Of a stretch of 64,000 bases of DNA, positions 12,115 through 63,384 are shown in pieces. This DNA comes from Candidatus Omnitrophota bacterium. GTDB taxonomy: Bacteria > Omnitrophota > Gorgyraeia > Duberdicusellales > 4484-171. Each line of letters opens with the position of its first letter. Positions within the stretch are counted from its first letter, which is position 1. Under the pieces are notes generated by a model. That model made no database searches and had not been told where the DNA came from. It saw only the letters and a program-made list of their open reading frames with translations. Position numbers and translations under genes: made by a program. Where the stretch lies: NCBI GenBank assembly GCA_016935525.1, contig JAFGQU010000013.1, positions 26,523-90,522 of the forward strand, in the 5' to 3' direction.

Positions 12115-12119
12115 TCGCG

Positions 12120-13931
12120 ATGGCCAGGCTATTGTTGAGATTAATAAATGTATTTGTGCATCTTTTACCGCGTCCGGCGGCCCGGGCGTTAGGCGGGATG
12201 ATCGGCTTTTCCTTTTACCGTAACCGCCGCAGACGCCGGAACGCGTTTATCAATATCAAACAGGCGTTTCCCGAAAAAAGTAATCGTGAGCTTTTCTCGA
12301 TCATCCGCCGCAGTTTTATCTCTTTCGGCGTGAGTATTATCGAGACGTTCCTGGTCGAACAGATGAAAGAAGAAGTAACCCGGCAATGGTCGGAAAAAAT
12401 GACTCAAACCGGGGAGATATTCGTCGGGCTCCATCAGGGGAACTGGGAATCGTATCATGCGGATTTCGCGCGTACCGCGCCGCTGGCATTACTGGCAAAA
12501 GCGCAGAGATATTCAGTGCTTGACGATTATTTGAACGATCTGCGCAAGACCCATCTTGTTACGGTGTGTTTTTCCCTGAAAGAGGCGATCGCGGCTCTTA
12601 AAAAAAATATGTGGGTCGGGCTGGTCATCGATCACGGCGCGGAAAAAAACGCCCGGTTCGTCGATTTTTTCGGCCAGCTGGTGCCTACTCCGGGAGGAGC
12701 GGTGTCGCTCGCGAAAAAATTCGATAAACGGATTTTCCCGACGTTCGGGTATCGTAAGGGGAAAGAGCAGATATTCGTCATCGATGATCCCCTGGATTGC
12801 CGGGATCTTTCCGAAGAGGAAGCCTTACGTAAGATCAATGAAATGTATGAAGAGTTTTTAAGGGCGCATCCTTACGAGTATATGTGGTGGTTTAAACGGT
12901 TCAAACGGAAAAAGAACCGTAGTATCCTTATTTTGAGCGATGGTAAAGCCGGGCATCTTAAACAGTCTTTCGCGTTGAGTAAAAAAGTGGAGGAAGCCGG
13001 GTACCGGGTGGCTACCGAGACCGTAGAGGTAGCGTATCGTCACCGGTGGTCCCGGGCGGGCCTGGATATCGTTGCTTGTTTCAGTTCGCCCTGGGCAGTA
13101 GGTAGAACAAGAGCGTTGCGGTTCTTTCTTAAAAAGGAAATATGGGAGAAGTTAGAGAAGAGGTTTTACGATATTGTCATCTCTACCGGTTCAAGCGTGG
13201 CCGCGGCGAATGTGTTGTATGCCCGGTCACTGGGAGCAAAATCGTGCGTGATCTTAAGACCGAATGTTCCGTTAGTTAAATTCGATACAGCGCTCGTGCC
13301 CGAGCATGACGGGATAAAAGGGAACAATGTGATCACGACTAAAGGGGCGTTAGCCTATTTCGAACACTGGCAGGAACATGTGTTACGCGGGAAGGAGCAT
13401 TTCCGGTTTACCGAAGAGAAAAAGATCGCGGTATGTATCGGGGGGGCGCTCAATGACCACGGGCAATATCGTGAACGTCTCGGCATGTTCCTTGCGGCGT
13501 TAAAAGAATACGCTCTTAAACATCAGTACAGAATCGTCCTCACCACGTCGAGACGTACCGAAAGGCTGGTTGATGAGATCATCGAACGTGAACTTTCCTC
13601 ATTCCCCAATACTGAAGCGCTCCTCCTGGTAAGTCGCGAGAATCATCCGTTTGTAGTGCCGGCGTTTCTCGCGGTAAGTGAAATAGTCTGTGTGAGTGCC
13701 GAGAGCGTATCGATGATCTCCGAAAGCCTCTCCCAGGATAAAACAACGGCAGCGGTGTTTCTTGAAGACCTGAAATCGAAACCGCATCGGCGGTTTCTGG
13801 CATCACTGGAGAAAGAATATCTGAATTTTTTAAAGTATCCTTATGGCCAGTTTTCGTTCCGGCACCCGACGAGGTCGCTTAGGGCGCAGAACGAAGAACG
13901 GCTGGCGGAGGCGGTAACGCGGTTGTTATGA
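12120..13931 (+). CDS. fusion protein: LpxL/HtrB-family lipid A late acyltransferase (N-terminal) with ELM1/DUF1022-type domain (C-terminal)
   Basis: Residues 1-~265 look like lauroyl/myristoyl acyltransferases. From ~270 the sequence ILILSDGKAGHLKQSFAL... matches the bacterial ELM1 (mitochondrial-fission-ELM1-like) family start (KxxxLxDGKxGHxNQ). Confidence 0.65.
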   Translation: MARLLLRLINVFVHLLPRPAARALGGMIGFSFYRNRRRRRNAFINIKQAFPEKSNRELFSIIRRSFISFGVSIIETFLVEQMKEEVTRQWSEKMTQTGEIFVGLHQGNWESYHADFARTAPLALLAKAQRYSVLDDYLNDLRKTHLVTVCFSLKEAIAALKKNMWVGLVIDHGAEKNARFVDFFGQLVPTPGGAVSLAKKFDKRIFPTFGYRKGKEQIFVIDDPLDCRDLSEEEALRKINEMYEEFLRAHPYEYMWWFKRFKRKKNRSILILSDGKAGHLKQSFALSKKVEEAGYRVATETVEVAYRHRWSRAGLDIVACFSSPWAVGRTRALRFFLKKEIWEKLEKRFYDIVISTGSSVAAANVLYARSLGAKSCVILRPNVPLVKFDTALVPEHDGIKGNNVITTKGALAYFEHWQEHVLRGKEHFRFTEEKKIAVCIGGALNDHGQYRERLGMFLAALKEYALKHQYRIVLTTSRRTERLVDEIIERELSSFPNTEALLLVSRENHPFVVPAFLAVSEIVCVSAESVSMISESLSQDKTTAAVFLEDLKSKPHRRFLASLEKEYLNFLKYPYGQFSFRHPTRSLRAQNEERLAEAVTRLL

Positions 13932-15982
13932 GAGTGTTACAGATATTGCCTAAGATGAATATCGGAGGAGTGGAGAAAGGGGTGCTTGATTTTTCTTCTT
14001 ATTTTAAATCGGACATGGTCGTCGTCTCCGGCGGAGGAAGATGGGTGAAAAAGCTGGAAGAGGCCGGGGCGAAACATTATACCCTTTCGGTATACCGGAA
14101 ATCTCCGGTAAGTATTTTCTCAATCGGAAAATTGCGCCGGATAATCAAAGAAGAAAAGGTCGATATCGTCCATGCCCGTTCACGCGTGCCGGCGTGGATC
14201 GCTTTTTTCGCGACCCGGGGATTAGACGTCCCTTTTATGACTACCGCGCACGGAGCCTATTCGGTCCACAATTTCAGTGAAGTGATGGGGTGGGGTAAAT
14301 TCGTGATCTGTCCTTCGAAAAGTATCATCCGGCATATGATGGACAATTTCGGCGTACGTGAAAATAAAGTAAGGCTTGTCCCGCGGTGGGTAGATCTTGA
14401 TAAGTTCACTTTTAAACCGCAAACAGACCGGCGCCTGTGTAATTCGATCCTCAGTATCGGGCGGATCTCTCCTTCAAAAGGATACGAATACCTGATCGAA
14501 GCGTTCCGGAAGATCGCCCGGCATAATCCCTATTTGACCCTGACTATTGTCGGAGAAGCGGAACCTTCCAAAACGAAATATTTTCAATATTTAAAAAGTC
14601 TGGTCACACGATACGCTTTAAATTATCAGGTGCGTTTTCTGGGGTACCGGGAAGATGTCAATGAACTGCTCGATACCGCCTTCGCTTTGGTGATCCCTTC
14701 GGTCGTCGAAGAAGCGTTCGGCCGGGTGGTCGTTGAGGCGTTTGCCGCTGGCGTTCCGGTAGTCGCCACACGCATGGGAGCGTTGGAGGAGATCATCGAA
14801 CATCGTCAAGACGGGATCCTCGTGTTTCCCCGTAATGCCGACAGCCTCGCCGAAGGGCTTTTAGAGATCGTAAATAACCCGCCGCTGGCCCAGAAGCTCA
14901 TAGAGAATGCCCGCAGAAAAGTCGAAACCCTTTATTCTTTTTCCCATTGTGTGCGGGAGGTGGAAAAAGTATACCGGGAAGTGGTGCGTCATAAAAGAAT
15001 ACTGGTGATGAAGATATCTTCTTTAGGAGATGTGATCCTTTCGATCCCTTCTTTGAAAGCGATCAAAGAACAATGTCCCGACAGCGAACTTGTATTGCTT
15101 ACTCTCAAGAAGTACTCGTCTCTGTTCTACGGGTGTCCGTATGTCGATAGAGTTATCGGCCTTGACGCCGACTATAAACGGTTGCGTAACATCGTCCAGT
15201 TAAGCCGCTCTTTGAGAAGAGAGAGTTTCGATTACGTGATCGACCTGCAGAATAACCGCGCTTCCCACCTGATCGCTTTTTTGACGTTACCGCAGAAGTC
15301 GTTCGGATATTCCCGGAAATGGGGCAGATTATTGACGCATAAGGTTCCGGTATCGAAAAAGAGTGTTTCTCCTTTAGAATCTCAGGAAAAGATATTGAAC
15401 GCGGCCGGTATCGTTTTGACCGATAAAAGGCTCAGGTTATGGGATATGAACGTGTCTCAGCCTCAAAAATGGGAATTCTCCGATGAAGCCTGTATCGGTA
15501 TTAATATGTCGGCGTCGGTAAAGTGGCAGACTAAAAACTGGCCGTTGGCGCATACCAAGAAACTTATCGAATTGATCTTAAGAGAATTCCCTAAAATGAA
15601 GGTCGTATTGCTCGGTGACGAACATAGCGTAGCTGAATCTAAACTACTGGAGAAGATCGCGCCGCATTCGGTGATCAATCTGTGCGGAAAGACTACTCTG
15701 GGGGAACTGGTCGGTGTCCTTGCCCATGTAAAGATATTCATCACTCAGGATACAGCCCCTTTACACCTTGCCTGCGCGTTAGGGATCAAAGTGATCGCTC
15801 TTTTCGGCCCGACAGATCCGGATCGTCATACGGTAAAAAGCGATTATCTCCATCTGGTGGTGAGGAAAATACCCTGTTCATTCTGTTATAAACCGGTATG
15901 TAAAGATAACGTCTGTATGACCAAGATCACTCCTCAGGAAATAATGATGAGAATACAGAGTATATTAGGTAAATCAGGTTAA
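13928..15982 (+). CDS. bifunctional glycosyltransferase: GT4 (N-terminal) fused to GT9 LPS heptosyltransferase (C-terminal)
   Basis: N-terminal part has the GT4 E-x7-E region (EEAFGRVVVEAFAAGVPVV). From ~aa 355, ILVMKISSLGDVILSIPSLKAIKE... is the GT9/ADP-heptose heptosyltransferase N-terminus. Confidence 0.7.
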   Translation: MRVLQILPKMNIGGVEKGVLDFSSYFKSDMVVVSGGGRWVKKLEEAGAKHYTLSVYRKSPVSIFSIGKLRRIIKEEKVDIVHARSRVPAWIAFFATRGLDVPFMTTAHGAYSVHNFSEVMGWGKFVICPSKSIIRHMMDNFGVRENKVRLVPRWVDLDKFTFKPQTDRRLCNSILSIGRISPSKGYEYLIEAFRKIARHNPYLTLTIVGEAEPSKTKYFQYLKSLVTRYALNYQVRFLGYREDVNELLDTAFALVIPSVVEEAFGRVVVEAFAAGVPVVATRMGALEEIIEHRQDGILVFPRNADSLAEGLLEIVNNPPLAQKLIENARRKVETLYSFSHCVREVEKVYREVVRHKRILVMKISSLGDVILSIPSLKAIKEQCPDSELVLLTLKKYSSLFYGCPYVDRVIGLDADYKRLRNIVQLSRSLRRESFDYVIDLQNNRASHLIAFLTLPQKSFGYSRKWGRLLTHKVPVSKKSVSPLESQEKILNAAGIVLTDKRLRLWDMNVSQPQKWEFSDEACIGINMSASVKWQTKNWPLAHTKKLIELILREFPKMKVVLLGDEHSVAESKLLEKIAPHSVINLCGKTTLGELVGVLAHVKIFITQDTAPLHLACALGIKVIALFGPTDPDRHTVKSDYLHLVVRKIPCSFCYKPVCKDNVCMTKITPQEIMMRIQSILGKSG

Positions 15983-15993
15983 GAAATAGTTCG

Positions 15994-16076
15994 CGCGTTC
16001 ACCCGTGCTCGCGTTTCCCGCCACAGGCGGGATTCCCGTTCAAAAGAACGGGTACACGGGCGAACGGGAAAACGGG
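15994..16076. repeat. GC-rich nested palindromic element in the LPS cluster intergenic region
   Basis: Nested inverted repeats CGTTCACCCGTG/CACGGGCGAACG and GTTTCCCG/CGGGAAAAC around the hairpin CCCGTTC-AAAA-GAACGGG. Confidence 0.35.
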
Positions 16077-16098
16077 CTAACTCGACTATAGATTAAAT

Positions 16099-17157
16099 AT
16101 GAATATATTAATCTTAACTACTCATCTGGACCCGGGCGGGATCACCCGTTATGCCTTAAATTTAAGTGAAGAGTTATCCCGAGATCACCGGGTATGGGTC
16201 GCCTCCTCCGGCGGCTCCTGGCAGGATAGATTTTCCCGCTCCGGCGTAGGGTTTAAATGGATCCCGATTAAGACCAAATCGATACTGGATCCTAAGATCA
16301 TAGCCTGTTTTTTTAATCTTCTTCCGTTTTTGGTAAAAAATAAGATCGACGTTATCTGCGCCAATACCCGGGTTACTCAGTTTCTGGCTTACCTTATGTA
16401 TCGGGCCGGCGGGATCCCTTATGTTTCGGTATATCATGGTTTCTATAAAGCCCGGTATGAACGTAAAGTCTTAAAATTTCAGGGGGCCCGTACAATCGCG
16501 GTCAGTGAATCGGTAAAAAGACACCTGACCGAAGACCTGGGTGTCCCCTCAGAACAGATCCGGGTGGTCTATAACGGAATCGATCCGGCCCGGTTTGCGC
16601 CTCGTTCTAAAAAGCAGGATAGCCGGGGGAGAATACGGTTAGGTATTTTAGGCCGGATCTCGGCGGAAAAAGGGCACCTGTTGGTGGTCGAGACGGTAAA
16701 AGAACTTATCGCTGACGGCGTGAACGTGTCGTTATATATTGCCGGTGAAGGGAAATTGAAAAAGAAAGTCACCGAATACGTGACGAGGTGCGGATTGGAT
16801 GCGTATGTGGAGTTCGTTTCTGCCGACGGCGAGCGGTTCCTGGATATGATCGACATCCTGATCGTCGCTTCATCCAAAGAAGGGTTTGGCTATATTATTT
16901 TAGAGGCGTTTGCGAAAGAGGTGCCGGTAGTCGCCTACGCGGTAGGCGGTATCAAAGAGATCGTGAGCGACGGACAAAACGGATTGCTTTTCTGGCAGTA
17001 CAATGCCGGGAGTCTCAAAGAGAAGCTGGTAGAGATCATCAACGATTACGAATTACAACAACAGTTGGTAATAAACGGGAAAGGAAGTCTGAGCCGGTTC
17101 AGTTTAGAGCAGATGGCCAGAGAAACCGCCCGAGTGTTAGGGGAAACTTTAAGATGA
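16099..17157 (+). CDS. glycosyltransferase family 4
   Basis: GT4 fold with EGFGYIILEAFAKEVPVVAYAVGG (E-x7-E). 352 aa. Confidence 0.8.
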   Translation: MNILILTTHLDPGGITRYALNLSEELSRDHRVWVASSGGSWQDRFSRSGVGFKWIPIKTKSILDPKIIACFFNLLPFLVKNKIDVICANTRVTQFLAYLMYRAGGIPYVSVYHGFYKARYERKVLKFQGARTIAVSESVKRHLTEDLGVPSEQIRVVYNGIDPARFAPRSKKQDSRGRIRLGILGRISAEKGHLLVVETVKELIADGVNVSLYIAGEGKLKKKVTEYVTRCGLDAYVEFVSADGERFLDMIDILIVASSKEGFGYIILEAFAKEVPVVAYAVGGIKEIVSDGQNGLLFWQYNAGSLKEKLVEIINDYELQQQLVINGKGSLSRFSLEQMARETARVLGETLR

Positions 17158-17924
17158 TAAAAAGAATATTTTTTGCAGTCTTTGCGGTTTTGGCTGTTTT
17201 ATTTTTAGGGTTTTATATCTGGCTGTATCCGCAATACGAGGTGCCGGTCTTTATGTACCATTCGTTGAATGAAGCCCGGTTAGGTGAATATTCCGTCGTG
17301 CCGCTTGAGACTTTTCGTGCCCAGATGGAATATATCAAAAAGAACGGATATACGGTGTTGCGATTGGAAGAGTACTGCCGCCGGTTAAAAGAAGGCTTAA
17401 GTGTACCGCGGCATAGCGTGGTGATCACTTTTGACGACGGGCATCGTGATAATACGCGTGCGGTCGAGGTGCTGGACAGCCTGGATATCCCGGCAACCAT
17501 ATTCCTCATAGTCGATAAGATCGGAACCGAGGCCTATCTTACTAAAGAACAGGTCGTAGCATTTCTTCAAAATACCCCGGTCGATATCGGTTCGCACACG
17601 ATGAGCCATGCCTATTTACCGGACTTGGTCGATAGCGAAGTTTTCTATCAGATCAATGAATCTAAACATACCTTAATCGAAGAGTTCGGCGTGCCGGTTG
17701 AAACGCTCACCTATCCGGTAGGAGGGTTTAACGAAACCGTATTAAAAGAAGTAGAACATGCCGGGTACCTGTGCGCGTGCACTACGAACCGGGGATTTTC
17801 CAAAGAGAAACACCTGTTCGCGTTACGCCGGATCAAGATCACCGATCGTGACCGGGGGATAGCGCTATGGGCGAAACTGAGCGGGTATTATAACGTATTT
17901 AAAAAACCTAAAAATCCTTACTAA
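17154..17924 (+). CDS. polysaccharide deacetylase (CE4/NodB family), membrane-anchored
   Basis: Start ATG at 17154 overlaps the upstream TGA. N-terminal TM helix, then CE4 motifs VVITFDDGHRD and IGSHTMSHAYL. Confidence 0.75.
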   Translation: MIKRIFFAVFAVLAVLFLGFYIWLYPQYEVPVFMYHSLNEARLGEYSVVPLETFRAQMEYIKKNGYTVLRLEEYCRRLKEGLSVPRHSVVITFDDGHRDNTRAVEVLDSLDIPATIFLIVDKIGTEAYLTKEQVVAFLQNTPVDIGSHTMSHAYLPDLVDSEVFYQINESKHTLIEEFGVPVETLTYPVGGFNETVLKEVEHAGYLCACTTNRGFSKEKHLFALRRIKITDRDRGIALWAKLSGYYNVFKKPKNPY

Positions 17925-17930
17925 TGAAAA

Positions 17931-18100
17931 GTTACACGACACACGCCACACGCATGCCTGCTACGCAGGCCGTCACACGTTGCACGACACACGTCACATG
18001 TATTAATTCTTTCTCGACGTGTGACTATGTGACCTTGTGTCCTTGTGACTTGCCGAAGGCATACGTATGACGTGTGACCTTGTGACTATGTGACCTGCGT
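17931..18100. repeat. family-1 intergenic repeat element (GTCACA/TGTGAC octamer arrays), copy A
   Basis: Tandem NGTCACAN octamers followed by tandem NTGTGACN octamers, with embedded hairpins GCCTGCTACGCAGGC and TGCCGAAGGCA. Approximately the reverse complement of copy C at 44245-44408. Confidence 0.7.
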
Positions 18101-18103
18101 GTT

Positions 18104-19117
18104 ATGGAACGAGTACTCGTCGTCAACGTAAACTGGCTGGGTGACTGTATCATGACTTTGCCGGCATTCAGTGCCCTGAAGAAAGAATATCCCCACGTAT
18201 ATACCGCGGTAATGGCGCCGGGGCGGGTCGCCGAGATATTTGAAAAAGATCCTTCTATCGATGAGGTCCTGGTGTTTGACGAACGAACCACGCATCGGAG
18301 CCTGCCGGCGAAACTGCGGTTTATCCGTGCATTAAAAGAAAAGAGATTTGATACGGCGATATGTATCCATCGTTCGTGTACCCGTATATTGATCTGTCGG
18401 CTTGCCGGTATTCCCCGGAGGATCGGGTATCACCGCCGCAAGACTTCCTGGCTGATCAATCATAAAGTAAAACCGCCGGCAGGTACCGGGCATCGTCAGG
18501 ATTATTATTTGTGTCTTTTCGAAGCGGCCGCAATACCGGTAAAGACGAGGATTCCGCAGGTATTCATCGACGATGATGTGCGTCATCGTATGTATTACCG
18601 TCTGCAGAGGCCTGAGCATACGCACGCTCATCTTATCGGGGTACAGGTCTCGGCAAATTGGGACCAGAAACGCTGGCCGGCACAATCGTATGCCGAGTTG
18701 TGCGACCGGCTGATCAGCCGGTACTCCTGCGCGATATTCTTTGTCGGAACGCAAAAAGACGCCCCCGCGGTAAGCGCGGTCACCGAAAAAATGAAACGTA
18801 AGGATTTTTACGATTTTTGCGGACAGACGACTCTTTCCGAACTTGCCGCGGTTATGGAGAATTTTGATTTGTTTATATCCAACGATTCCGGGCCGGCGCA
18901 TCTTGCCGCGGCCGTCGGTATTCATACGCTTGTTCTTTTCGGTCCGACCGATCCGGAGGTCACCTCTCCGCGCGGTAAGTATGTCCATATCGTCAAAAGC
19001 GATGTGCCCTGCGTGATACCCTGTTATAAGACCGACTGTAAGGATAATTTCTGTATGAGCGGGATATCGGTCGATGAAGTGATAGAGACCGTACAGTACA
19101 TATTCGACAATGAATAA
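18104..19117 (+). CDS. LPS heptosyltransferase (GT9)
   Basis: VLVVNVNWLGDCIMTLPAFSALKKEYP N-terminus and C-terminal GPAHLAAAVG...LFGPTDP GT9 motifs. Confidence 0.8.
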   Translation: MERVLVVNVNWLGDCIMTLPAFSALKKEYPHVYTAVMAPGRVAEIFEKDPSIDEVLVFDERTTHRSLPAKLRFIRALKEKRFDTAICIHRSCTRILICRLAGIPRRIGYHRRKTSWLINHKVKPPAGTGHRQDYYLCLFEAAAIPVKTRIPQVFIDDDVRHRMYYRLQRPEHTHAHLIGVQVSANWDQKRWPAQSYAELCDRLISRYSCAIFFVGTQKDAPAVSAVTEKMKRKDFYDFCGQTTLSELAAVMENFDLFISNDSGPAHLAAAVGIHTLVLFGPTDPEVTSPRGKYVHIVKSDVPCVIPCYKTDCKDNFCMSGISVDEVIETVQYIFDNE

Positions 19118-22153: not shown

Positions 22154-23188
22154 ATGACTCAATACGTAATTCTTAATAAAACCGATCTTGACGAATTTAT
22201 TTCCCGTCTTGCTCAGATTAAAAAGACCGTCGCTCCCGTAAAACGGGGAGTGAAGAATTATGCGTTCGAAGAAGTCACCTCCGGAAAAAACGTCGCCGTA
22301 AAATATATACCTACTATTCTGCCTCCGAAAAAGTATTTCCTGCCTCAGACCGAAACGTTACAGCAGTATGATAAGAGTAAGAAGACCTGGAACGCGGTAA
22401 TGGAGTTTCAGGAAATGATCATATTCGGGGTCCATACCTGCGACCTTGCCGGTATCCAATGTCTTAATATGGCCTTTTCCGATAAACCCAAAGATATCAA
22501 TTATCTTGCCCGTAAGAACAGAATATTGATCATCGGCCTTGAATGTAATGATTATTGCGATGAATACGCGAGCTGTAAGGTGATGGATAACCATATGCCC
22601 AACGGAGGATATGACCTTTTCTTCACCGAACTCGATGACTTTTTTATGGTCCATATCAATACGCTCGAAGGTGAAGATTTGATCGAGAAGACCGGTTTGT
22701 TCAAAGAAGCGAAAGAAGAGCATAAGAAAGCCCTGAAAGCGATGAGGGAAGAGAAAAGGAAACGGTTTAAGGATGAAGTCAATGTGACCCATAACCAGTT
22801 AAAACCGCTATTCGATAAATCGTTCGAAGCGCCGGTGTGGCAGAGTCTCGAGGCGCGCTGTGTTTCCTGCGGAAATTGTACGAATGTCTGTCCTACCTGT
22901 TATTGTTTTGATATCGAAGATGAAATAGACCTGAATCTTACTACGGGCGTGAGAAAACGCCGGTGGGATTCCTGTCAAAACGAACCGTTTGCTCAAGTAG
23001 CCGGCGGTGAGAATTTCCGGGAAGCCCGCGGCGAACGCCAGCGTCACCGGTACCTGCGTAAATTCAAATATCCCGTAGATAAATACAGCCGGTATTTCTG
23101 TACCGGGTGCGGACGATGTTCCCGGACCTGTATGGCTAAGATTAATTTAAAAGAGACCATAAACGAGTTAGCCCAAGGAGCAAAATGA
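22154..23188 (+). CDS. [NiFe] hydrogenase (group 3b-like, sulfhydrogenase-type) beta subunit, 4Fe-4S protein
   Basis: C-terminal ferredoxin-like Cys clusters (CVSCGNCTNVCPTCYC, CTGCGRCSRTC). Position and architecture match HydB of the tetrameric sulfhydrogenase. Confidence 0.7.
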   Translation: MTQYVILNKTDLDEFISRLAQIKKTVAPVKRGVKNYAFEEVTSGKNVAVKYIPTILPPKKYFLPQTETLQQYDKSKKTWNAVMEFQEMIIFGVHTCDLAGIQCLNMAFSDKPKDINYLARKNRILIIGLECNDYCDEYASCKVMDNHMPNGGYDLFFTELDDFFMVHINTLEGEDLIEKTGLFKEAKEEHKKALKAMREEKRKRFKDEVNVTHNQLKPLFDKSFEAPVWQSLEARCVSCGNCTNVCPTCYCFDIEDEIDLNLTTGVRKRRWDSCQNEPFAQVAGGENFREARGERQRHRYLRKFKYPVDKYSRYFCTGCGRCSRTCMAKINLKETINELAQGAK

Positions 23189-24021
23189 AAAGAGTTACCT
23201 TAAAAGAATCGGCGTATAACGTAAAGACCGGGAAGATCCTTGTCGCAAAAATGCTTACCGCCCAGGAGAAATATTTTAAGATCGCTCTAGCCGGAGGTGA
23301 GAGCCTCGACCATGAGCCGGGACAGTTCGTGATGGTAGCGGTTCCGGGGGTGGGTGAGGCGCCGATTTCGGTCTCTTCTTCGCCTACGATCAGAGGGTAT
23401 TTTGAATTGGTCGTACGTGATGCCGGTAAACTGACTCATGTATTACATCAATTAGAAGCCGGCGATACGGTGGGTATCCGCGGACCGTTCGGCGTGGGAT
23501 TTCCTACCCAGATCTTAGAGGGAAACGACCTGGTGTTTGTTGCCGGAGGGTTGGGGATCGTTCCGTTACGGTCGCTGATCAATTTTGTGATTGATAACCG
23601 CCGTGATTTCGGAAAGGTGAGTATTCTCCTTGGGTGTAAGACTCCTCAAGATATGCTGTTTGGCGATGAGGTCGATCAATGGGAAAAACGGCTTGATGTG
23701 AATTTCAATTGTACCGTCGATAAAGCCGATCCCGATTGGAAAGGAAACGTCGGCTTGATCACTTCGTTGATTCCGGGGGTGACTCTTGATATCGAACGGA
23801 CGTTCGCTATCGTAGTCGGCCCGCCGATCATGTATAAATTCGTCATTGCCGAACTGCTTAAGAAGAACATCCCTGAACGGCAGATCTATCTTTCCCTGGA
23901 GAGGCACATGAAGTGCGGGGTTGGCAAGTGCGGCCATTGTCAGATCGGAGATGTGTATTGCTGTCAGGACGGGCCGGTATTTTCTTATGATAAGATAAAA
24001 AATAATATTGAGGCCTTATAA
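23185..24021 (+). CDS. hydrogenase gamma subunit, FAD/NAD(P)-binding oxidoreductase with 2Fe-2S (PyrK-like)
   Basis: Ferredoxin-reductase fold (GIRGPFGVGF, VAGGLGIVP) and C-terminal CGVGKCGHCQIGDVYCC cluster. Confidence 0.75.
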   Translation: MKRVTLKESAYNVKTGKILVAKMLTAQEKYFKIALAGGESLDHEPGQFVMVAVPGVGEAPISVSSSPTIRGYFELVVRDAGKLTHVLHQLEAGDTVGIRGPFGVGFPTQILEGNDLVFVAGGLGIVPLRSLINFVIDNRRDFGKVSILLGCKTPQDMLFGDEVDQWEKRLDVNFNCTVDKADPDWKGNVGLITSLIPGVTLDIERTFAIVVGPPIMYKFVIAELLKKNIPERQIYLSLERHMKCGVGKCGHCQIGDVYCCQDGPVFSYDKIKNNIEAL

Positions 24022-24023
24022 TC

Positions 24024-24791
24024 ATGAAAAAACCAAAAGTAGCTTTTTTTGATTTTTCTTGTTGTGAAGGATGTCAGTTGCAGGTTGCTAATTTCGGAGA
24101 AGGATTGTTAGATATCTTAAACCTTATTGAGGTCGTAGAGTTTCGTGAAGTAATGTCCGAAAAATGGGAAGGAGATTTTGATGTCGCGATAGTAGAGGGG
24201 AGCATTACGACCCCTCACGGCGTCGAACGGATAAAAAAGATCAGAGACCGCTCTAAAGTATTGATCGCCTACGGGTCCTGTGCGACTATCGGCGGCATCA
24301 ATGGGATGAAAAATAAATTCGATTTAGACGAGATCAAAGAGTATGTATATAAAGACGGCGCAAAATATTTCGAAACGATTCCGACTCGGCCGGTGCATCA
24401 GGTGGTAAAAGTCGATTACTTTGTGCACGGCTGCCCGGTATATCAGCCGGAATTCGTAAAGGTATTGAAATGCGCTTTACAGGGTATTCCGTATACGGTG
24501 CCGGATCATTCGGTCTGTGTGGAATGTAAACTGAACGAAAACGAGTGTATGTATGATAAAGGGCTTACTTGTTTAGGGCCGGTCACCCGGGCCGGATGTA
24601 ATTCCTGGTGTATTAATAACGGGAATATCTGTTACGGATGCCGGGGGATGGTGAGTAATCCTGCGAAAAACGGGCAGATGGATATCCTGGAGAAACATAA
24701 TATCCCGCTTGACTGGGTAGTGAATAAGATCGATATGTACAATAAACCGCGTGAATTAGAGGAGACCGAGACCAATGGCAAGAAACGTTAA
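24024..24791 (+). CDS. [NiFe] hydrogenase small (delta) subunit
   Basis: N-terminal FDFSCCEGCQL (NuoB/HycG-like proximal cluster motif) and additional C-terminal Cys clusters. Confidence 0.8.
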   Translation: MKKPKVAFFDFSCCEGCQLQVANFGEGLLDILNLIEVVEFREVMSEKWEGDFDVAIVEGSITTPHGVERIKKIRDRSKVLIAYGSCATIGGINGMKNKFDLDEIKEYVYKDGAKYFETIPTRPVHQVVKVDYFVHGCPVYQPEFVKVLKCALQGIPYTVPDHSVCVECKLNENECMYDKGLTCLGPVTRAGCNSWCINNGNICYGCRGMVSNPAKNGQMDILEKHNIPLDWVVNKIDMYNKPRELEETETNGKKR

Positions 24792-26100
24792 AGTCAATGT
24801 CGAGTATCTGACCCGGGTCGAAGGGCACGGGAATATCGTCGTAAATGTCAAAGAAGGTAAATTAGAGGAATGCCGTCTTGATATCGTCGAGTCGCCTCGT
24901 TTCTTCGAAGGTATGTTACGGGGACGTTCTATTTTCGAAGCCCAGCATATCACTTCCCGGATCTGCGGGATCTGCGCCTGCGGCCACACTCTGGCTTCGA
25001 TCCAGGCCGCCGAAGATGCTATCGGGTTTATACCGTCAGAGCAGACTACTATGTTGAGAAAATTGCTTCTTCATCAGGAGAATCTTGACAGCCATATCCT
25101 GCATATCTATCTGTTGGTCGCCCCGGACCTGCTGGGGGTAAAAAGTTTTGTTCCGCTTATCGATACTCATAATAAAGTCGTCCGGCGGGCTTTGCGGATG
25201 AAGAAGAGCTGTAACGATGTCTGCGATATCCTGGTCGGCCGTCATGTCCATCCGATCTCGGCTATCGTCGGAGGATTTACCAAATTACCGCGCGAAAAAG
25301 ACCTGGATGCGATGATGGATATTTTGGTCAGTATGCGCGCGGATATGGATGCGACCGTCGAGTTATGTAAAACGTTGAAGTTCCCTCAGTTTGAACGGGA
25401 AACCGAGTATGTTGGGTTAGTCAGCGATGATGATGAATACCCGATGCTCATCGGCGATGTCGGCTCGACTGACGGGAAACGTATGGATAAACATGAGTAT
25501 CGTAAGATCACCAACGAGTTCGTGATGCCGCATTCTTCGGCTAAACACGCCAAATGGAACCGTGAATCGTATATGGTGGGGGCGCTCGCCCGGGTGAATC
25601 TGAACTACAAGAAGCTTCATCCTAAAGCCAAGGCCGTCGCCGATTTCCTGGGGTTACATAAGATCTGTTACAACAGTTTTCTCAATACCGCAGCGCAATT
25701 GGTCGAATGTATCCATTCACTGGAAGAATCGATCGCGATCCTCGAATATTTTAAAAACCATGGCGTCAAGCATGAGGAAGCTCTGGTGGTAGGGTTGAAC
25801 GAAAAAAAGACTATTCCGGTAAAAGCCGGTAACGGTGTCGGCGCGGTGGAGGTGCCTCGCGGGCTCCTTTTCCATAACTATGAAGTTGACGATGACGGTA
25901 AGATCGTCAATGCCAATTGCATTATCCCTACTTCTCAAAACGTCAATAGTATCGAACATGATATGAAAAAACTGGTACCTCAGATCCTTGAGAAGTCCGA
26001 TGAAGAGATCACTCTGATGATGGAGATGCTGGTACGGGCTTATGATCCCTGTATATCGTGTTCGGCCCATTTCCTCGATGTCAAATTCGTTAACCGCTAG
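24775..26100 (+). CDS. [NiFe] hydrogenase large (alpha) subunit
   Basis: N-terminal RICGICACGHT (L1 Ni-binding CxxC) and C-terminal DPCISCSAH followed by a 9-aa extension (protease cleavage site). Confidence 0.9.
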   Translation: MARNVKVNVEYLTRVEGHGNIVVNVKEGKLEECRLDIVESPRFFEGMLRGRSIFEAQHITSRICGICACGHTLASIQAAEDAIGFIPSEQTTMLRKLLLHQENLDSHILHIYLLVAPDLLGVKSFVPLIDTHNKVVRRALRMKKSCNDVCDILVGRHVHPISAIVGGFTKLPREKDLDAMMDILVSMRADMDATVELCKTLKFPQFERETEYVGLVSDDDEYPMLIGDVGSTDGKRMDKHEYRKITNEFVMPHSSAKHAKWNRESYMVGALARVNLNYKKLHPKAKAVADFLGLHKICYNSFLNTAAQLVECIHSLEESIAILEYFKNHGVKHEEALVVGLNEKKTIPVKAGNGVGAVEVPRGLLFHNYEVDDDGKIVNANCIIPTSQNVNSIEHDMKKLVPQILEKSDEEITLMMEMLVRAYDPCISCSAHFLDVKFVNR

Positions 26101-26563
26101 TGTCCTTTCTGCGTTACGCCGGTATCCCGGCCACAATGTTTTTATTACCGTAGGGAACAGTTTACGGAGTGATGACGGTGTGGGGCCGTATATCTCATCG
26201 GTTCTGGAAAATCTCAAAGACCTGAGTGTGATCGCTGCCGGACAGAATCCCGAGAACGTGATCGATAAGGTGGCCGGGTTGCGTCCCGCCCGTATCCTTA
26301 TTATCGATGCGGCTGATTTCGGGAAGAACCCCGGTTATACCCAGATCGTGGACCGTGAACATATCCCCGAGACCAGTGTCAGTACGCATGCGATTTCATT
26401 GAAAGTCATCGCTCATCTTATAGAGGAAGATACCGGCGTGGCTGTGGAATTTCTGGGTATTCAGCCGCAATCGGTCGAGTTGAAAGAAGGGTTATCCCCG
26501 CAGGTAAAAGAGACTGCCGATGCGATTATCGCCGTAATCAGGAAGGAGTTTTCTCATGCATGA
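26078..26563 (+). CDS. hydrogenase maturation endopeptidase (HycI/HyaD family)
   Basis: FITVGNSLRSDDGVGPYI and IIDAADFG motifs. Start is uncertain: ATG 26078 or 26042, either overlapping the large-subunit gene. Confidence 0.7.
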   Translation: MSNSLTASVLSALRRYPGHNVFITVGNSLRSDDGVGPYISSVLENLKDLSVIAAGQNPENVIDKVAGLRPARILIIDAADFGKNPGYTQIVDREHIPETSVSTHAISLKVIAHLIEEDTGVAVEFLGIQPQSVELKEGLSPQVKETADAIIAVIRKEFSHA

Positions 26564-26798
26564 GATGCATTTGGTAAAAGACCTATTTGAAGATGTTTTA
26601 ACCCATGCTCGCAATAACCAGGCCGATAAGGTGACGAAAGTATACCTTAAAATGGGCGAGTTTACCGAGATCAATGAAGAGGTGCTCCGGTTCTTTTTCA
26701 AAGAAAAAGGGGCCCAGACAATATTAGAAGGTGCCGAATTAGTCATCGAAAAAAGCCCGGCCCGCGAATTACGGCTGGTATCGTTTGATTGCGAGTAA
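26556..26798 (+). CDS. hypA: HypA-like nickel-insertion protein, N-terminal fragment lacking the Zn-finger (possible pseudogene)
   Basis: Starts MHEMHL (HypA MHE Ni-binding N-terminus). Ends at ...ELVIEKSPARELRLVSFDCE*, exactly where the first CxxC of the Zn finger should begin. The stop codon abuts the family-2 repeat. Confidence 0.45.
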   Translation: MHEMHLVKDLFEDVLTHARNNQADKVTKVYLKMGEFTEINEEVLRFFFKEKGAQTILEGAELVIEKSPARELRLVSFDCE

Positions 26799-26893
26799 AG
26801 ATGCAGATGATCGCTGATTTTGGATTCACACAGATGATCGCTGATATTATATCTGTGGCAATCTGTGATTCTCTGAATCTGTGATCATCAGCG
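26799..26893. repeat. family-2 intergenic repeat cluster (CAGATGATCGCTGAT / ATCTGTGATCATCAG units), locus E1
   Basis: Two forward units (GCAGATGATCGCTGAT, CACAGATGATCGCTGAT) and three ATCTGTG units in the opposite orientation within 95 nt. Confidence 0.6.
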
Positions 26894-26912
26894 TGAAGGA
26901 GCGAAGCGACGA

Positions 26913-28211
26913 ATGTGTTATGCTATTCCCGGAAAAGTAAAACGGTTCCAAGATAAGTTTGTCATTGTCGATTATTTCGGCGAAGAACGCCGGGCGTATA
27001 ATGAGCTGGATGATCTCTCAATCGGAGACTATATTTACGCTCAGGGCGGTTACGCCATCCAAAAGATAGCATCGGATGAGGCCGAAAGTATATTGATGAC
27101 GTGGAAAGAGACTTTTTTTGAATTACAGGAAGTCGACCTCCAACTTTCCCGGATGGATCTTGAATCTAAAGACCTTTCGCTCCGAGTCGTCGGGCTGCTT
27201 GATAAAGTGAATCACGGGTTTTCTTTAAAAACCGACGAGTTGGAATACATCCTTGGCCTTGAAGATGAAAAAGAAAAAGAGTTTATATGTAAAAATGCGA
27301 ATTTTTTAAGGCAGAAATATCATAAGAACGCCTGTTGTGTGCATGGGATCATCGAGATATCCAACCGGTGCGCCCGGGATTGTCATTATTGCGGTATTTC
27401 TACGTTTAATAATAATCTTATCCGGTATCATATGGACGCGGATGAGATATTCGCGGTCGCTCAAAAAGCCGTCAAAGAATATAGTTTTAAAGCATTGGTC
27501 TTACAGAGCGGTGAAGAGTGCGGGTATAATACCCGTGAATTGGCGGGAGTGATCTCGAAAATCCGCCGTGAATTAGGCGCGTTGGTATTTATCAGTTTTG
27601 GCGAGATATCTCTTGAAGCTCTCGATCAGTATTATCAGGCCGGGGCCAGAGGGATATTGTTGCGGTTTGAGACGTCGAACGAAGGATTATATAACCGTCT
27701 TCATCCCGGAGGAGCATTGGCTAGGCGTATTGATTTGATCCGGGCGGCCGATAAGCGGGGCTATCTGGTCGCAACCGGCGGTCTCATCGGGTTGCCGGGG
27801 GCGACTGCGCATGATATCGTGAACGATGCTTTGTTAGCTAAAGAGCTGAACGCCGAGATGTATTCGTTCGGCCCGTTTATTCCATCGCACGATACGCCGC
27901 TTTCACAATCTTTTTCGGTCTCACCGGATTATATGCGGATGGTCATCGCCCTTATCCGGCTGGTCGATCCTGCGAAAGGGAAAATATTAGTGACTACGGC
28001 ATTTGAAACGTTAGACCCTTTAGCCAGGCGCCAGGGGCTGCTGTGCGGCGCGAATTCGGTTATGCTGAATGTGACTCCCCGCAGGTACCGTCAGCTTTAT
28101 TCGATTTATCCCGGACGGGCTCACCAGTCGCAGTCGATCCCTGAACAGATAGAAGAGACTATTGTATTACTCAAGTCTTTAGGCCGCGCGCCTACGGATC
28201 TGGGTATTTAA
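26913..28211 (+). CDS. hydE: fusion protein: HypC/HupF-like domain (N-terminal) joined to HydE-type radical-SAM maturase
   Basis: N-terminal MCYAIPGKV...VDYFGEERRAYNEL...GDYIYAQGGYAIQKI matches the HypC signature (MC-x-AIP, essential Cys2). From ~aa 95: EISNRCARDCHYCG (CxxxCxxC), YLVATGGLIGLPG, GANSVMLNVTPRRYRQLYSIYPGR match HydE. Confidence 0.7.
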   Translation: MCYAIPGKVKRFQDKFVIVDYFGEERRAYNELDDLSIGDYIYAQGGYAIQKIASDEAESILMTWKETFFELQEVDLQLSRMDLESKDLSLRVVGLLDKVNHGFSLKTDELEYILGLEDEKEKEFICKNANFLRQKYHKNACCVHGIIEISNRCARDCHYCGISTFNNNLIRYHMDADEIFAVAQKAVKEYSFKALVLQSGEECGYNTRELAGVISKIRRELGALVFISFGEISLEALDQYYQAGARGILLRFETSNEGLYNRLHPGGALARRIDLIRAADKRGYLVATGGLIGLPGATAHDIVNDALLAKELNAEMYSFGPFIPSHDTPLSQSFSVSPDYMRMVIALIRLVDPAKGKILVTTAFETLDPLARRQGLLCGANSVMLNVTPRRYRQLYSIYPGRAHQSQSIPEQIEETIVLLKSLGRAPTDLGI

Positions 28212-28322: not shown

Positions 28323-28991
28323 ATGGTAAATAAGAATTATATTATACGTCTTTCTAATTATCGTCACGCTTTGAACCGGTTTAAAACGTTGGGCTTTATT
28401 AAGGTTTTTTCCGACAATCTGGCTGACGCCACCGGGGTGACTTCATCTCAGGTCCGTAAAGATTTTTCGATCTTCGGGATATCCGGGAACAAAAAGGGGG
28501 GGTATCAGGTCGAACTATTATTGGAACGATTAAATGATATCCTCGGTAAAGACCGGCTTCAACGCGTGATCATCGTGGGTGCCGGTAAAATAGGTAAGGC
28601 GCTTATCAATTATAAAGGATTTGAAAAAGACGGCATAAAAGTTGTCGCCGCTTTTGACGTGAATACGGCTGACCGGGTTCCGGTTGAGATCGATGTCCCG
28701 GTGTATCCTCTGGAGAAATTAAAAAATTACGTGAAGAAGAATAACATTGAAATCGGGGTTATCGCCGTACCGGATAACGCGGCTCAAGGGGTAATGGATC
28801 TTCTGGTAGAGTCGGGGATAAAAGGGGTATTGAATTTCGCGCCGATACGGTTACGTTCCGATACCGATACGATCATCAATAACGTGGATCTGCGTTCGGA
28901 ACTGGAAAATCTCGTTTATTTCGTGAACGCGACCGGGAAATCGAAAGCCAGAAATAATGATAAAGGTAAAAAGAATAGAGAAGAGCAATGA
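28323..28991 (+). CDS. rex: redox-sensing transcriptional repressor Rex
   Basis: Winged-helix N-terminus (VTSSQVRKDFSIFG) and Rossmann NADH-binding domain (IIVGAGKIGKAL). 222 aa. Confidence 0.85.
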   Translation: MVNKNYIIRLSNYRHALNRFKTLGFIKVFSDNLADATGVTSSQVRKDFSIFGISGNKKGGYQVELLLERLNDILGKDRLQRVIIVGAGKIGKALINYKGFEKDGIKVVAAFDVNTADRVPVEIDVPVYPLEKLKNYVKKNNIEIGVIAVPDNAAQGVMDLLVESGIKGVLNFAPIRLRSDTDTIINNVDLRSELENLVYFVNATGKSKARNNDKGKKNREEQ

Positions 28992-30490
28992 GTATCACGC
29001 ATAATAAAAAAAACCTGGAAATTTGGATAAAAAACCGTGTACGTCATGACCAGGTCGATAAGTACCTGCATGATCAGAAAGATTTTATCGATGAGGATAA
29101 GATCTTTACCGCGTTAGAAGCCGGGAAATCTCCGGATGCCGGGTATGTGAGAGATATTCTCAAGAAATCTCTGGCTATCGAAACGCTTAATCTTGATGAA
29201 ACGGCGGCCCTTCTCAACGTGACTGATCCGGACTTGTTAGCTGAGATGAGGCAGACCGCCGCAGCGGTGAAAAAGAAAGTGTATGATAACCGGATCGTCA
29301 CGTTCGCGCCTTTGTATCTTTCTAATTTCTGCGTGAACAATTGTCTTTACTGCGGGTTTCGCAGCGATAACATCCTCGCTCGGCGCCGGACGCTTTCAAT
29401 CGACGAGGTAAAGCGGGAAATCGAAGTCCTGGCCGGTACTATCGGGCATAAACGGCTGATCGTCGTGTACGGTGAACATCCTCAAAGTGATATCGATTAT
29501 ATGGTCGATACTATCGCTGCGATCTATGAGGTGAAGGTGAAGACCAAAAAAGGGGTCGGACAGATCCGCCGGGTGAACGTGAATGCCCCGCCGCTTTCGG
29601 TTGAATCGTTACGGTCTTTGAAGGAAGTCGGAATCGGGACCTACCAGGTGTTTCAGGAGACATACCACCACGATACCTACCGCCGCCTTCATCCTCAAGG
29701 TACGATAAAAGGCGATTACCGTTGGCGCCTTTATTGTATGCATCGGGCGTTTGAGGCGGGTATAGATGATGTGGGTATCGGCGTGTTATTCGGGTTGTAT
29801 GACTGGAAATTCGAAGTGCTGGGACTGGTGACTCACGCCCGTATCCTGGAAGCCCATTGCGGGGTAGGCCCGCATACGGTATCGTTTCCGCGGCTGGAAG
29901 AGGCTACGCATATCCCGTTTACGTTACAGAGTAAGTATCGGGTACGTGACGAAGATTTTAAGAAAATAGTGACGGTATTGCGCTTGGCGATCCCTTATAC
30001 CGGAATGATCCTTACCGCCCGGGAAACCGCGTCGATGCGCCGGGAGACTATTGGCTTGGGAGTGACCCAGATCGACGCGTCAACGCGTATCGGTATCGGA
30101 GCCTATAGCGACCGATCAGAAGAACAGGAAGGACGCCGTCAGCAGTTTTTGCTCGGCGATACCCGCAGTTTAGATGAGGTAATCCGTGAACTGGCCCGTG
30201 ACGGGTATATTACCTCGTTCTGTACCGCGGGATATCGTTGCGGACGGACCGGTGAGTGTATCATGGAATTGCTTAAAACCGGTAAAGAAGGACAGTTCTG
30301 TAAATTAAATGCCATCCTTACTTTTCGCGAATGGCTTGACGATTTCGCTTCAAAACCGACCCAGGATATTGGCGAAGAGATCATCAATAAAGAACTTGAT
30401 GAAGTGAAAAAAAACATACCCGGAATGTATCCTCATTTGGTCGAGTATTATGAGCGGGTAGCTCAAGGCGAACGCGACCTCTATTTTTAA
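28988..30490 (+). CDS. hydG: HydG-type radical-SAM protein (tyrosine-lyase family, ThiH/HydG-like)
   Basis: FAPLYLSNFCVNNCLYCGF radical-SAM motif typical of HydG/ThiH. At 500 aa it is HydG-sized, with a C-terminal Cys cluster (FCTAGYRCGRTGEC...FC). Confidence 0.65.
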   Translation: MSITHNKKNLEIWIKNRVRHDQVDKYLHDQKDFIDEDKIFTALEAGKSPDAGYVRDILKKSLAIETLNLDETAALLNVTDPDLLAEMRQTAAAVKKKVYDNRIVTFAPLYLSNFCVNNCLYCGFRSDNILARRRTLSIDEVKREIEVLAGTIGHKRLIVVYGEHPQSDIDYMVDTIAAIYEVKVKTKKGVGQIRRVNVNAPPLSVESLRSLKEVGIGTYQVFQETYHHDTYRRLHPQGTIKGDYRWRLYCMHRAFEAGIDDVGIGVLFGLYDWKFEVLGLVTHARILEAHCGVGPHTVSFPRLEEATHIPFTLQSKYRVRDEDFKKIVTVLRLAIPYTGMILTARETASMRRETIGLGVTQIDASTRIGIGAYSDRSEEQEGRRQQFLLGDTRSLDEVIRELARDGYITSFCTAGYRCGRTGECIMELLKTGKEGQFCKLNAILTFREWLDDFASKPTQDIGEEIINKELDEVKKNIPGMYPHLVEYYERVAQGERDLYF

Positions 30491-34470: not shown

Positions 34471-34558
34471 TTGTGGTCACACGACACACGTCACAAGGTC
34501 ACACGTAAAGAAAACAGGTGATTTACCTGTGACGTGTGACTATGTGACTTTGTGACCC
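34471..34558. repeat. family-1 repeat element, copy B
   Basis: GGTCACACGACACACGTCACAAGGTCACACG, a 22-nt spacer, then TGTGACGTGTGACTATGTGACTTTGTGACC. Confidence 0.7.
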
Positions 34559-34569
34559 GAATAAAAGGT

Positions 34570-44244: not shown

Positions 44245-44408
44245 TCACGTCACAAAGTCACATAGTCACAAGGTCACACGTGTGCCTTCGGCATGTCACA
44301 AGGACACATAGACACATGGTCACAAGTAAAGAGAAAAATACGTGTGACGTGTGTCGTGCAACGTGTGACAAGCCTGCTGGGTAGGCTTTCGTGTGTCGTG
44401 TGACTTAT
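44245..44408. repeat. family-1 repeat element, copy C (longest)
   Basis: CACGTCACAAAGTCACATAGTCACAAGGTCACACG - TGCCTTCGGCA - TGTCACAAGGACACATAGACACATGGTCACAAG ... GTGTGACGTGTGTCGTGCAACGTGTGAC - AAGCCTGCTGGGTAGGCTT - TCGTGTGTCGTGTGAC. Reverse complement of copy A. Confidence 0.7.
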
Positions 44409-46128: not shown

Positions 46129-46155
46129 TTTGAAGAAACACAGATGATCGCAGAT
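46114..46155. repeat. family-2 repeat units, locus E2
   Basis: GCGGATGATCGCTGAT and CACAGATGATCGCAGAT span the glyA stop and the probable comEB start region. Confidence 0.5.
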
Positions 46156-46167
46156 ATGAGTATGAAT

Positions 46168-55720: not shown

Positions 55721-55741
55721 GTCGAACGAAGTGAGGCAGAG

Positions 55742-63380: not shown

Positions 63381-63384
63381 CTAC

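Follow-up and report, generated by a model that had tools for sequence, protein, structure and literature searches.

According to current reviews, a nickel site and a CxxC zinc site occur together in every HypA protein (PMC7055735), and the zinc site is described as structure-stabilising (PMC7055735, PMC13202556). The role of the domain that carries it is under debate, with structural, regulatory, pH- or nickel-sensing and HypB- or UreE-docking functions all under discussion. Here we describe a HypA from which this domain is absent as a whole. It is encoded in a 64,000-nucleotide (64-kb) stretch of DNA from a Candidatus Omnitrophota bacterium (assembly GCA_016935525.1, contig JAFGQU010000013.1, positions 26,523 to 90,522 of the forward strand), which is referred to as the window and whose own numbering is used throughout. 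The gene, at 26556-26798 on the + strand, is an open reading frame (ORF) of 80 codons that starts with MHEMH and ends with ...LVSFDCE and a TAA stop. Its product, mini-HypA (MHEMHLVKDLFEDVLTHARNNQADKVTKVYLKMGEFTEINEEVLRFFFKEKGAQTILEGAELVIEKSPARELRLVSFDCE, then TAA), consists of the nickel-binding domain only: it has the MHE motif, an alpha-beta-alpha-beta-beta order of elements and the canonical C-terminal strand, and the zinc ribbon is absent. On the evidence given below, it is probable that the ORF encodes an intact, functional, single-domain HypA.

An earlier note on this DNA had reported a HypA-like ORF with an MHE start and an FDCE end, followed immediately by repeat units. Both observations hold. 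The note had left two explanations standing, a repeat insertion that turned hypA into a pseudogene, and a lineage that uses a HypA without the zinc finger. The data support the second, and the absence of the zinc finger extends far beyond this lineage.

The mini-HypA protein and its family

Mini-HypA is identical to NCBI entry MBN2483379.1, which is named HypA and lies on a 161,326-bp contig of an Omnitrophota metagenome-assembled genome (MAG). The N-terminal Met-His-Glu nickel motif is present at residues 1-3. The match to the Pfam HypA profile (PF01155) scores 60.4 bits against a gathering score of 28.9 (E=2e-16); in this alignment with the HypA family model, a check that the earlier note had proposed, the protein covers only profile positions 1-70 of 112. 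There is a single cysteine, C79, and a six-frame translation of 26600-27100 contains no CxxC in the protein or in the 114-nt spacer that follows the gene.

The earlier note had the ORF stop at the expected position of the first CxxC, and the remainder of the protein simply lost. This is not borne out: the tail corresponds to the strand that comes after the ribbon, and the loss is internal. When mini-HypA is aligned by MAFFT with canonical HypAs (111-139 aa long), its residues 1-67 pair with their N-terminal part, and the tail, (P/x)xRELRLVSFDCE, falls on the last canonical strand, GxELxVxxIExE, with a single long gap in place of the whole CxxC...CxxC ribbon. Residues 70-80 (RELRLVSFDCE) are thus the counterpart of the canonical C-terminal strand, which is located after the zinc ribbon. 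The absent segment amounts to about 35 residues relative to typical HypAs of 111-120 aa; the gap in the alignment is wider, at about 60 columns, owing to the longest forms of 139 aa. HMMER reports a second stretch, below significance, in which residues 68-78 pair with residues 103-113 of the Helicobacter pylori protein.

The nature of the tail was also assessed by scoring 60 representatives of the Zn-less family with two hidden Markov models (HMMs), one of the last 14 canonical columns and one of the first CxxC knuckle. The tail HMM gives the better score in 59 of the 60, with medians of 6.4 and -3.9 bits, respectively (shuffled, 0.4). The AlphaFold2 model of mini-HypA is a single domain with a pLDDT of 90.9 and H-E-H-E-E topology; its two helices lie against a sheet of three strands, the last of which is formed by the C-terminus. 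When this model is used to search the Protein Data Bank (PDB) with Foldseek, the 14 best matches are all HypA. Superposition with 3a43_B (TM 0.89, rmsd 1.9 Å) extends over 113 alignment columns of the 118-residue chain, and hence spans the zinc-domain gap from the N-terminus to the C-terminal strand. In this predicted structure, mini-HypA is a complete HypA nickel-binding domain, in which the ribbon between strands 2 and 3 is swapped for a tight turn, Ser67-Pro68-x-Arg70. As modelled, the missing zinc domain is an old, clean internal deletion and not a loss of the 3′ end.

Proteins of this type are numerous. A search of 5.8 billion proteins for close homologues gives 217 clusters at 95-63% identity, nearly all of them exactly 80 aa long, with Omnitrophota, Saganbacteria, Aureabacteria (Auribacterota) and Ancaeobacter as the named sources. 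A scan of the GTDB species genomes finds 38 loci with an 80-codon gene (two have 81 codons, and the end of a contig interrupts one copy), which between them use TAA, TAG and TGA as stop codons. Across 30 close homologues, M1, H2 and E3 show little or no variation, and the tail SPxRELRLVSFDCE is the most conserved part of the protein, with S67, R70, E71, L74, S76 and D78 invariant; the CxxC..CxxC zinc motif occurs in none of the 30. In pairwise comparisons of hypA genes, the proportion of nonsynonymous differences (pN) is 0.13-0.26, as against a saturated proportion of synonymous differences (pS) of 0.8-1.0. Over the last 14 codons the values are 0-0.21 and at least 0.67, respectively. By this measure the mini-hypA gene is under purifying selection, its last 14 codons included.

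In a wider search, HMMER was run without filters on 1.84 billion representatives of 50%-identity clusters and gave 1652 relatives. Among the best 150 of these, 62 have CxxC...CxxC, and 64 are Zn-less proteins of 76-92 aa (mode 80) that carry the canonical tail at their end; the MHE start is found in 60 of these 64, and the zinc motif in none. His5, which is invariant in the clade of the window, is commoner in the Zn-less (21 of 64) than in the canonical (9 of 62) representatives. A neighbour-joining tree of the first 66 residues, analysed by Fitch parsimony, requires 24 changes of state, compared with 39 expected at random. On this crude tree the Zn-less forms appear clustered yet interleaved with canonical ones, a pattern compatible with either single or repeated loss.

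Zn-less HypA is the rule in Omnitrophota, Margulisiibacteriota/Saganbacteria and Auribacterota. The statement of the earlier note that such a protein is unusual for a functional maturation set is therefore correct with respect to the textbook description only. The Zn-less proteins form a large subfamily that appears to be undescribed, although databases name its members HypA; among the papers searched for Zn-less or truncated HypA, none describes it.

A number of points weigh against a mini-HypA that works as a HypA. The six HypA equivalog models of NCBIfam are matched in their N-terminal part, and all of the matches are under the curated cut-offs (for TIGR00100, 56.5 bits against a cut-off of 88.1). 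In the window-like sequence itself the margin of the tail HMM is modest, 4.2 against 0.6 bits. An alignment of the short and canonical profiles by hhalign is contiguous, with the tail on the first CxxC region and no long gap. Such an outcome is expected from gap costs; given the disagreement, the equivalence of the strands rests on the structure prediction, the MAFFT alignment and the tail-HMM test. The literature adds to these points. Stability and partner binding are said to require the zinc domain (PMC13202556), urease and hydrogenase activity is lost in Cys mutants of H. pylori HypA, and residues critical for the binding of HypB have been reported from the C-terminal region of HypA (PMC7055735, PMC13202556). 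Since the zinc site matters in canonical HypA, a Zn-less HypA must work somewhat differently. Mini-HypA lacks this site, which the literature treats as defining; the protein is filed here as a variant HypA that would work like the HypA nickel domain.

Proposed nickel delivery in the hydrogenase operon

The gene is embedded in an operon for a [NiFe] hydrogenase of group 3b (sulfhydrogenase type). The large subunit (24775-26100, + strand; 441 aa, Pfam PF00374, E=4e-39) ends in DPCISCSAH-FLDVKFVNR and is the presumed client of both mini-HypA and the HycI protease. The other subunits precede it at 22154-24791 on the same strand, with beta at 22154-23188, gamma at 23185-24021 and small/delta at 24024-24791. 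They were assigned by the NCBIfam model sulfhyd_ShyB (E=4e-76, below the curated cut-off) and by the Pfam families NAD_binding_1, FAD_binding_6, DHODB_Fe-S_bind and Oxidored_q6. A HycI-type maturation endopeptidase (26042-26563, + strand; Pfam PF01750, E=2.3e-16) follows the large subunit, and the end of its gene overlaps the start of hypA by 8 nt (ATGCATGA), an arrangement that suggests translational coupling. The order is maintained in nearly all of the 38 loci, where the large subunit lies about 1.8 kb, and HycI about 0.5 kb, upstream of mini-hypA.

Related proteins are found joined to HycI or in other settings. In P0124 (225 aa), one of the cluster representatives, a HycI-type endopeptidase and a mini-HypA are naturally fused into one polypeptide, which ends in ...RELRLVGFEGE. 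A distant mini-HypA, P0195 (35% identity), follows HycI in locus L046 (2392-3424), together with a Mrp-type membrane hydrogenase (MnhE/F/G) and a ferredoxin. The next gene of that locus, which is cut by the contig end, encodes what we take, by eye, to be the Kae1-like C-terminal part of HypF, without the acylphosphatase, zinc-finger and YrdC parts.

We propose that mini-HypA is translated from the hydrogenase operon in a manner coupled to the HycI-type endopeptidase, and that it would bind Ni(II) at its N-terminal Met1-His2-Glu3. The clade-conserved His5 may provide an extra nickel ligand in place of the zinc-domain-proximal His98; the latter is presumably a nickel ligand near the zinc domain in the HypA of Thermococcus kodakarensis. 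Through its nickel domain, mini-HypA would dock on the group-3b large subunit while this is still immature, in the way that HypA of T. kodakarensis docks on its HyhL, and would deliver nickel to it, after which the HycI-type protease would cut off the C-terminal extension. Direct support is given by the predicted fold, the conservation, the synteny and the fusions; nickel binding, independence of the zinc domain and any independence of HypB are what we infer for the protein.

HypB is found neither in the Pfam annotation of the window nor in that of the related loci annotated in the same way. The HypB motif ENVGNLVCP, with up to two substitutions allowed, has no occurrence in 703 kb of loci, which is a weak negative. 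One contig, CAYRXT010000014.1, carries two hypA genes about 7 kb apart. The first encodes a canonical HypA of 114 aa (L048, 6922-7266), which has CxxC..CxxC and adjoins a Hox-type hydrogenase and HypF-C-D-E; the second encodes a mini-HypA (L013, 10001-10240), which adjoins a 3b hydrogenase and HycI. By analogy with HybF, mini-HypA may be said to behave as a hydrogenase-specific paralogue. No HypB is present in either of these clusters and, since the canonical hyp cluster also has none nearby, its absence from the loci says little.

It is also conceivable, although unlikely, that mini-HypA is intact and expressed but is not the nickel donor. It would then act as an adaptor or checkpoint for HycI, or as a docking factor for the large subunit, and nickel would come from a canonical HypA, HypB or SlyD encoded elsewhere. 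The close tie to HycI would be well explained in this way, as the overlap of 8 nt, the P0124 fusion and the retention of the pair in a group-4/Mrp context illustrate. So would the loss of the zinc region, which has been reported as important for partner interactions, and the co-existence of a canonical HypA in at least one genome. It is more difficult to account for the nickel ligands M1, H2 and E3, which are invariant in the close family, and for the MHE start that most of the Zn-less representatives retain; such a well-kept metal site at the N-terminus is difficult to understand if no metal is bound. A donor encoded nearby is not apparent either. The earlier note had suggested that a second, intact hypA be sought, and when the six-frame ORFs of the 64-kb window are all searched with a short-family HMM, the known copy is the only match; most of the 20-kb loci likewise have no second HypA.

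Far less probable is a split HypA, with the zinc-ribbon half supplied by a separate small gene or a neighbouring protein and assembling with the 80-aa half. These loci often encode maturation proteins in split or fused form (HycI::HypA and HypC::HydE are examples), which lends the idea some appeal. Yet there is no CxxC..CxxC ORF beside hypA, the window contains no second match to the short-HypA profile, and the first 150 residues of the HypC::HydE fusion, when aligned, show no conserved CxxC pair. Moreover, the mini form keeps the post-zinc strand, and hence is a closed single domain.

That a large and diverse Zn-less subfamily is under purifying selection shows that a nickel-binding domain by itself can form a stable unit maintained by selection, and mini-HypA offers an 80-residue minimal chaperone with which to study nickel delivery to group-3b hydrogenases. 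It also serves as a warning for annotation: Zn-less hypA genes are neither 'partial' nor pseudogenes, despite NCBIfam scores below the cut-offs.

The repeat cluster behind hypA

The spacer between hypA and the next gene, hypC::hydE, is filled by a cluster of short repeats, here called family-2 (cluster 1, 26797-26897). Two perfect direct 15-mers, CAGATGATCGCTGAT, at 26804-26818 and 26831-26845, are followed by a degenerate unit and by an inverted copy with 3 mismatches (26877-26891). The first unit, 26797-26820, abuts and overlaps the TAA stop of hypA. At up to 3 mismatches the 15-mer has 12 matches in the window, compared with 1.67 expected, a number that none of 100 shuffles reaches. Complementarity between the 21-nt inverted arms is 81%, and the spacer RNA is predicted to fold into one long imperfect hairpin (about 26801-26894; -39.9 kcal/mol, z = -3.5). 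A Shine-Dalgarno-like GAAGGAG (26895-26901, + strand), 11 nt ahead of the next gene, lies unpaired just 3′ of the hairpin. Rfam returns no match for the spacer. The hairpin would be intercistronic and would leave the next ribosome-binding site free.

The position of the cluster is what had led the earlier note to consider that a family-2 repeat had inserted into a full-length hypA, cutting off the 3′ part with the zinc finger and leaving a pseudogene. The contact between the first unit and the stop codon, the end of the Pfam match at profile position 70 of 112 and a database record for one homologue that reads 'HypA, partial' could all be taken in this sense. We regard an insertion pseudogene as extremely improbable. 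The same length and C-terminus recur in hundreds of clusters and in the 38 species genomes, of which 37 have no such repeat. Three different stop codons are in use, and many of the genomes have their next gene only 1-9 nt past the stop. There is no CxxC remnant downstream in any frame, the canonical C-terminal strand is kept, and pN is far below pS, in the last 14 codons as in the rest of the gene. Where orthologous loci lack the repeat, hypA still has its 80 codons, which by the earlier note's own criterion refutes pseudogenisation. A TAA stop or short length created by sequencing or assembly, to which a MAG may be prone at repeats, deserves equally little credence, as the independent Logan assembly of run SRR13394437 (L006), from the same organism, is 100% identical across hypA, stop and repeats, and homologues from many unrelated assemblies are of equal length.

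The comparison of loci shows how the spacer varies. In the 23 loci with a locatable next gene, its median length is 8 nt, and often 1-3 nt; the 114 nt of the window are the third longest. The repeat is absent from 37 of the 38 GTDB loci (L008-L044) and from L005, L001 and L004. In L001/L008 the stop is TGA and unrelated sequence follows, and in the Saganbacteria locus L004/L014 the next gene begins 2 nt past the hypA stop. A shorter, rearranged variant of the repeat is found at the same place in the closest relative (L002/L003/L007; 83% protein identity).

The 37 nt directly ahead of the hypC::hydE start, which comprise the last unit and the ribosome-binding site, differ at 2 positions between the window (26876-26912) and L002 (10278-10314), and the synonymous sites of hypA are saturated between the same two loci (pS 0.92). 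This difference in divergence points to constraint on the segment or to homogenisation, as far as the two sequences go. Other repeats occupy the same spacer elsewhere: L005 (10244-10379) has its own, unrelated TAGCG-type repeats, and L023 and L026 have unrelated repeats of the ACGCGGATT type. Short repeats thus seem to have landed repeatedly in the hypA/hypC::hydE spacer.

Three further family-2 clusters lie in the window, all in short spacers between co-directional ORFs on the + strand. Cluster 2 (46108-46157) covers the last codons of a serine hydroxymethyltransferase (SHMT) gene and the spacer before a dCMP deaminase gene; cluster 3 (55641-55715) lies downstream of ORF 54642-55622, in a spacer of a row of fatty-acid-synthesis genes; and cluster 4 (56642-56694) occupies the spacer between ORF 55688-56647 and ORF 56714-57448. 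The unit at 46108-46131 overlaps the 3′ end of the SHMT gene, whose ORF ends at 46128, and the last codons, ...DADDR*, are repeat sequence; the repeat may therefore contribute coding sequence there. All large family-matched ORFs of the window (1-64000) are on the + strand, among them genes for the lipopolysaccharide core and for purine and fatty-acid synthesis. A reading of the repeats as Rex or Fur operators was dropped, since the same repeat is present in unrelated operons. The orientation and spacing of the half-sites, as we assume them for a Rex box, do not fit the family-2 repeats.

A second, unrelated repeat family consists of GTGAC-rich units (for example GACGTGTGACTATGTGACCTTGTG), direct and inverted, with arms of up to 68 nt. 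Its clusters at 17931-18095, 34476-34563, 44242-44369 and 63311-63478 abut the ends of large + strand ORFs and are apparently intergenic.

Family-2 can be described as a lineage-specific palindromic element that resembles repetitive extragenic palindromic (REP) sequences. It has lengthened the spacer from a few nt to 114 nt and has left the hypA coding sequence unaltered. With REP and other intergenic palindromic repeats it shares imperfect palindromes of 15-25 nt in direct and inverted copies, a location in short co-directional spacers, stable RNA hairpins and the presence of several clusters per 64 kb (four here). Unlike the described REP families, it is limited to the lineage of the window and its closest relative, and the likeness described here is one of architecture. 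No RAYT-type transposase is seen among the Pfam-annotated ORFs of the window, although no search aimed at RAYT was made. In this genome, then, small lineage-specific repeats occupy the spacers of operons and leave the genes undamaged.

The HypC::HydE-like fusion and comparison with known systems

The gene that follows the repeats (26913-28211, + strand) encodes a protein of 432 aa with a HupF/HypC domain in residues 1-64, followed by radical SAM and BATS domains. This architecture is found in more than 100 clusters, which are annotated as HydE, HypC, biotin synthase or radical SAM protein. MCYAIPG is invariant across 119 homologues of the fusion, and an invariant Gln occupies the position that we take to correspond to His51 of Escherichia coli HypC. 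The HydE equivalog model gives 227 bits, against a cut-off of 254.6. The protein shares its HupF/HypC domain, with the invariant MCxAIPG, with HypC and its radical SAM part, including CxxxCxxC, with HydE; unlike those separate proteins, it unites the two in a single chain. Nothing relevant to a HypC-HydE fusion was found in the papers searched.

Further downstream lies the gene of a HydG radical SAM maturase (28988-30490, + strand; 500 aa), which scores 460 bits with TIGR03955 (cut-off 312) and matches Thermoanaerobacter italicus HydG (PDB 4WCX) with E=2.7e-135. Near 30220-30260, the window and other Omnitrophota loci encode CTAGYRCGRTG(E/K)C, whereas the T. italicus protein and the copies of Saganbacteria/Margulisiibacteriota have CTxCYRxGRTG; in the Omnitrophota HydG, the C-terminal cluster motif thus has its second Cys shifted three residues and an additional Cys behind it. 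A gene for a Rex-type redox-sensing repressor (28323-28991, + strand; Pfam Put_DNA-bind_N and CoA_binding) is located between those for the fusion and HydG, and shares 4 nt with the start of hydG. Many related loci also have a Rex homologue near the operon, and its proximity suggests NADH/NAD-responsive control.

The gene order allows a speculative reading, to which we assign a low probability, of a streamlined hybrid maturation operon, hydBGDA - hycI - mini-hypA - hypC::hydE-like - (rex) - hydG. HydG would make an Fe-CO/CN unit, which the HydE-like domain of the fusion would process and load onto Cys2 of its HypC part for the [NiFe] large subunit; the two would replace HypD/E/F and the still unknown anaerobic source of CO, and mini-HypA would insert nickel without HypB. 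The idea arises from the distribution of the genes. The fusion begins 1-15 nt past hypA in about 30 of the 38 species loci, and HypF-C-D-E is seen only in loci without the fusion. A search for HypD paired, among the 120 matches listed, only contigs free of the fusion (3,360,633, 592,403 and 61,525 bp); as at least one known HypD, that of L019, is missing from these matches, the lack of fusion-bearing contigs among them carries no weight. The contents of the window also back a hybrid pathway: HypB/D/E/F, HydF and an [FeFe] hydrogenase are all absent from the 64 kb, Pfam annotates about 50 other ORFs as housekeeping only, and tblastn with the HypD/E/F proteins of L001 finds nothing but the HypC domain of the fusion. 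A survey of Omnitrophota likewise found one hydrogenase only per MAG, in some cases of group 3b only (PMC8542988).

Two considerations weigh against such a pathway. The first is chemical: the HydG synthon is Fe(CO)2(CN), a ligand ratio that is wrong for Fe(CN)2CO. The second comes from locus L036, in which genes for a TM1266-like regulator, an ammonia-lyase, HydF, HydG, HydE, GcvT and GcvH (10327-18944) lie downstream of mini-HypA and a 3b hydrogenase; for comparison, the classical [FeFe] maturation cluster is treated in PMC11736057 and PMC12752695. The HydG of this classical cluster is orthologous, so that HydG and HydE may serve an [FeFe] hydrogenase elsewhere. No [FeFe] hydrogenase gene was identified in the examined part of the 20-kb L036 locus. 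The HypC::HydE-like fusion with HydG nearby is nevertheless a more intriguing lead than mini-HypA itself, and one that leads towards cross-talk between the maturation of [NiFe] and [FeFe] enzymes.

As regards mini-HypA, the comparison with known proteins is as follows. With canonical HypA/HybF (PF01155; 3A43 from T. kodakarensis, 2KDX and 6G81 from H. pylori) it has in common the MHE motif, the predicted fold of the nickel domain and the pattern of the C-terminal strand, as well as a genomic neighbourhood that includes the genes of a [NiFe] large subunit and the cognate endopeptidase. It differs from them in that the whole CxxC-Xn-CxxC domain is missing, in the invariance of His5 within its clade and in scores below the NCBIfam cut-offs. 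With E. coli HybF it shares the behaviour of a hydrogenase-specific paralogue (PMC12134894). The HypA of the T. kodakarensis HyhL-HypA complex (5YXY, 5YY0) is a protein of 139 aa that has the zinc domain and works with an ATPase-type HypB, whereas no HypB is seen here; the two systems nonetheless have a group-3b client in common, and the chains of this complex are the best Foldseek matches of mini-HypA.

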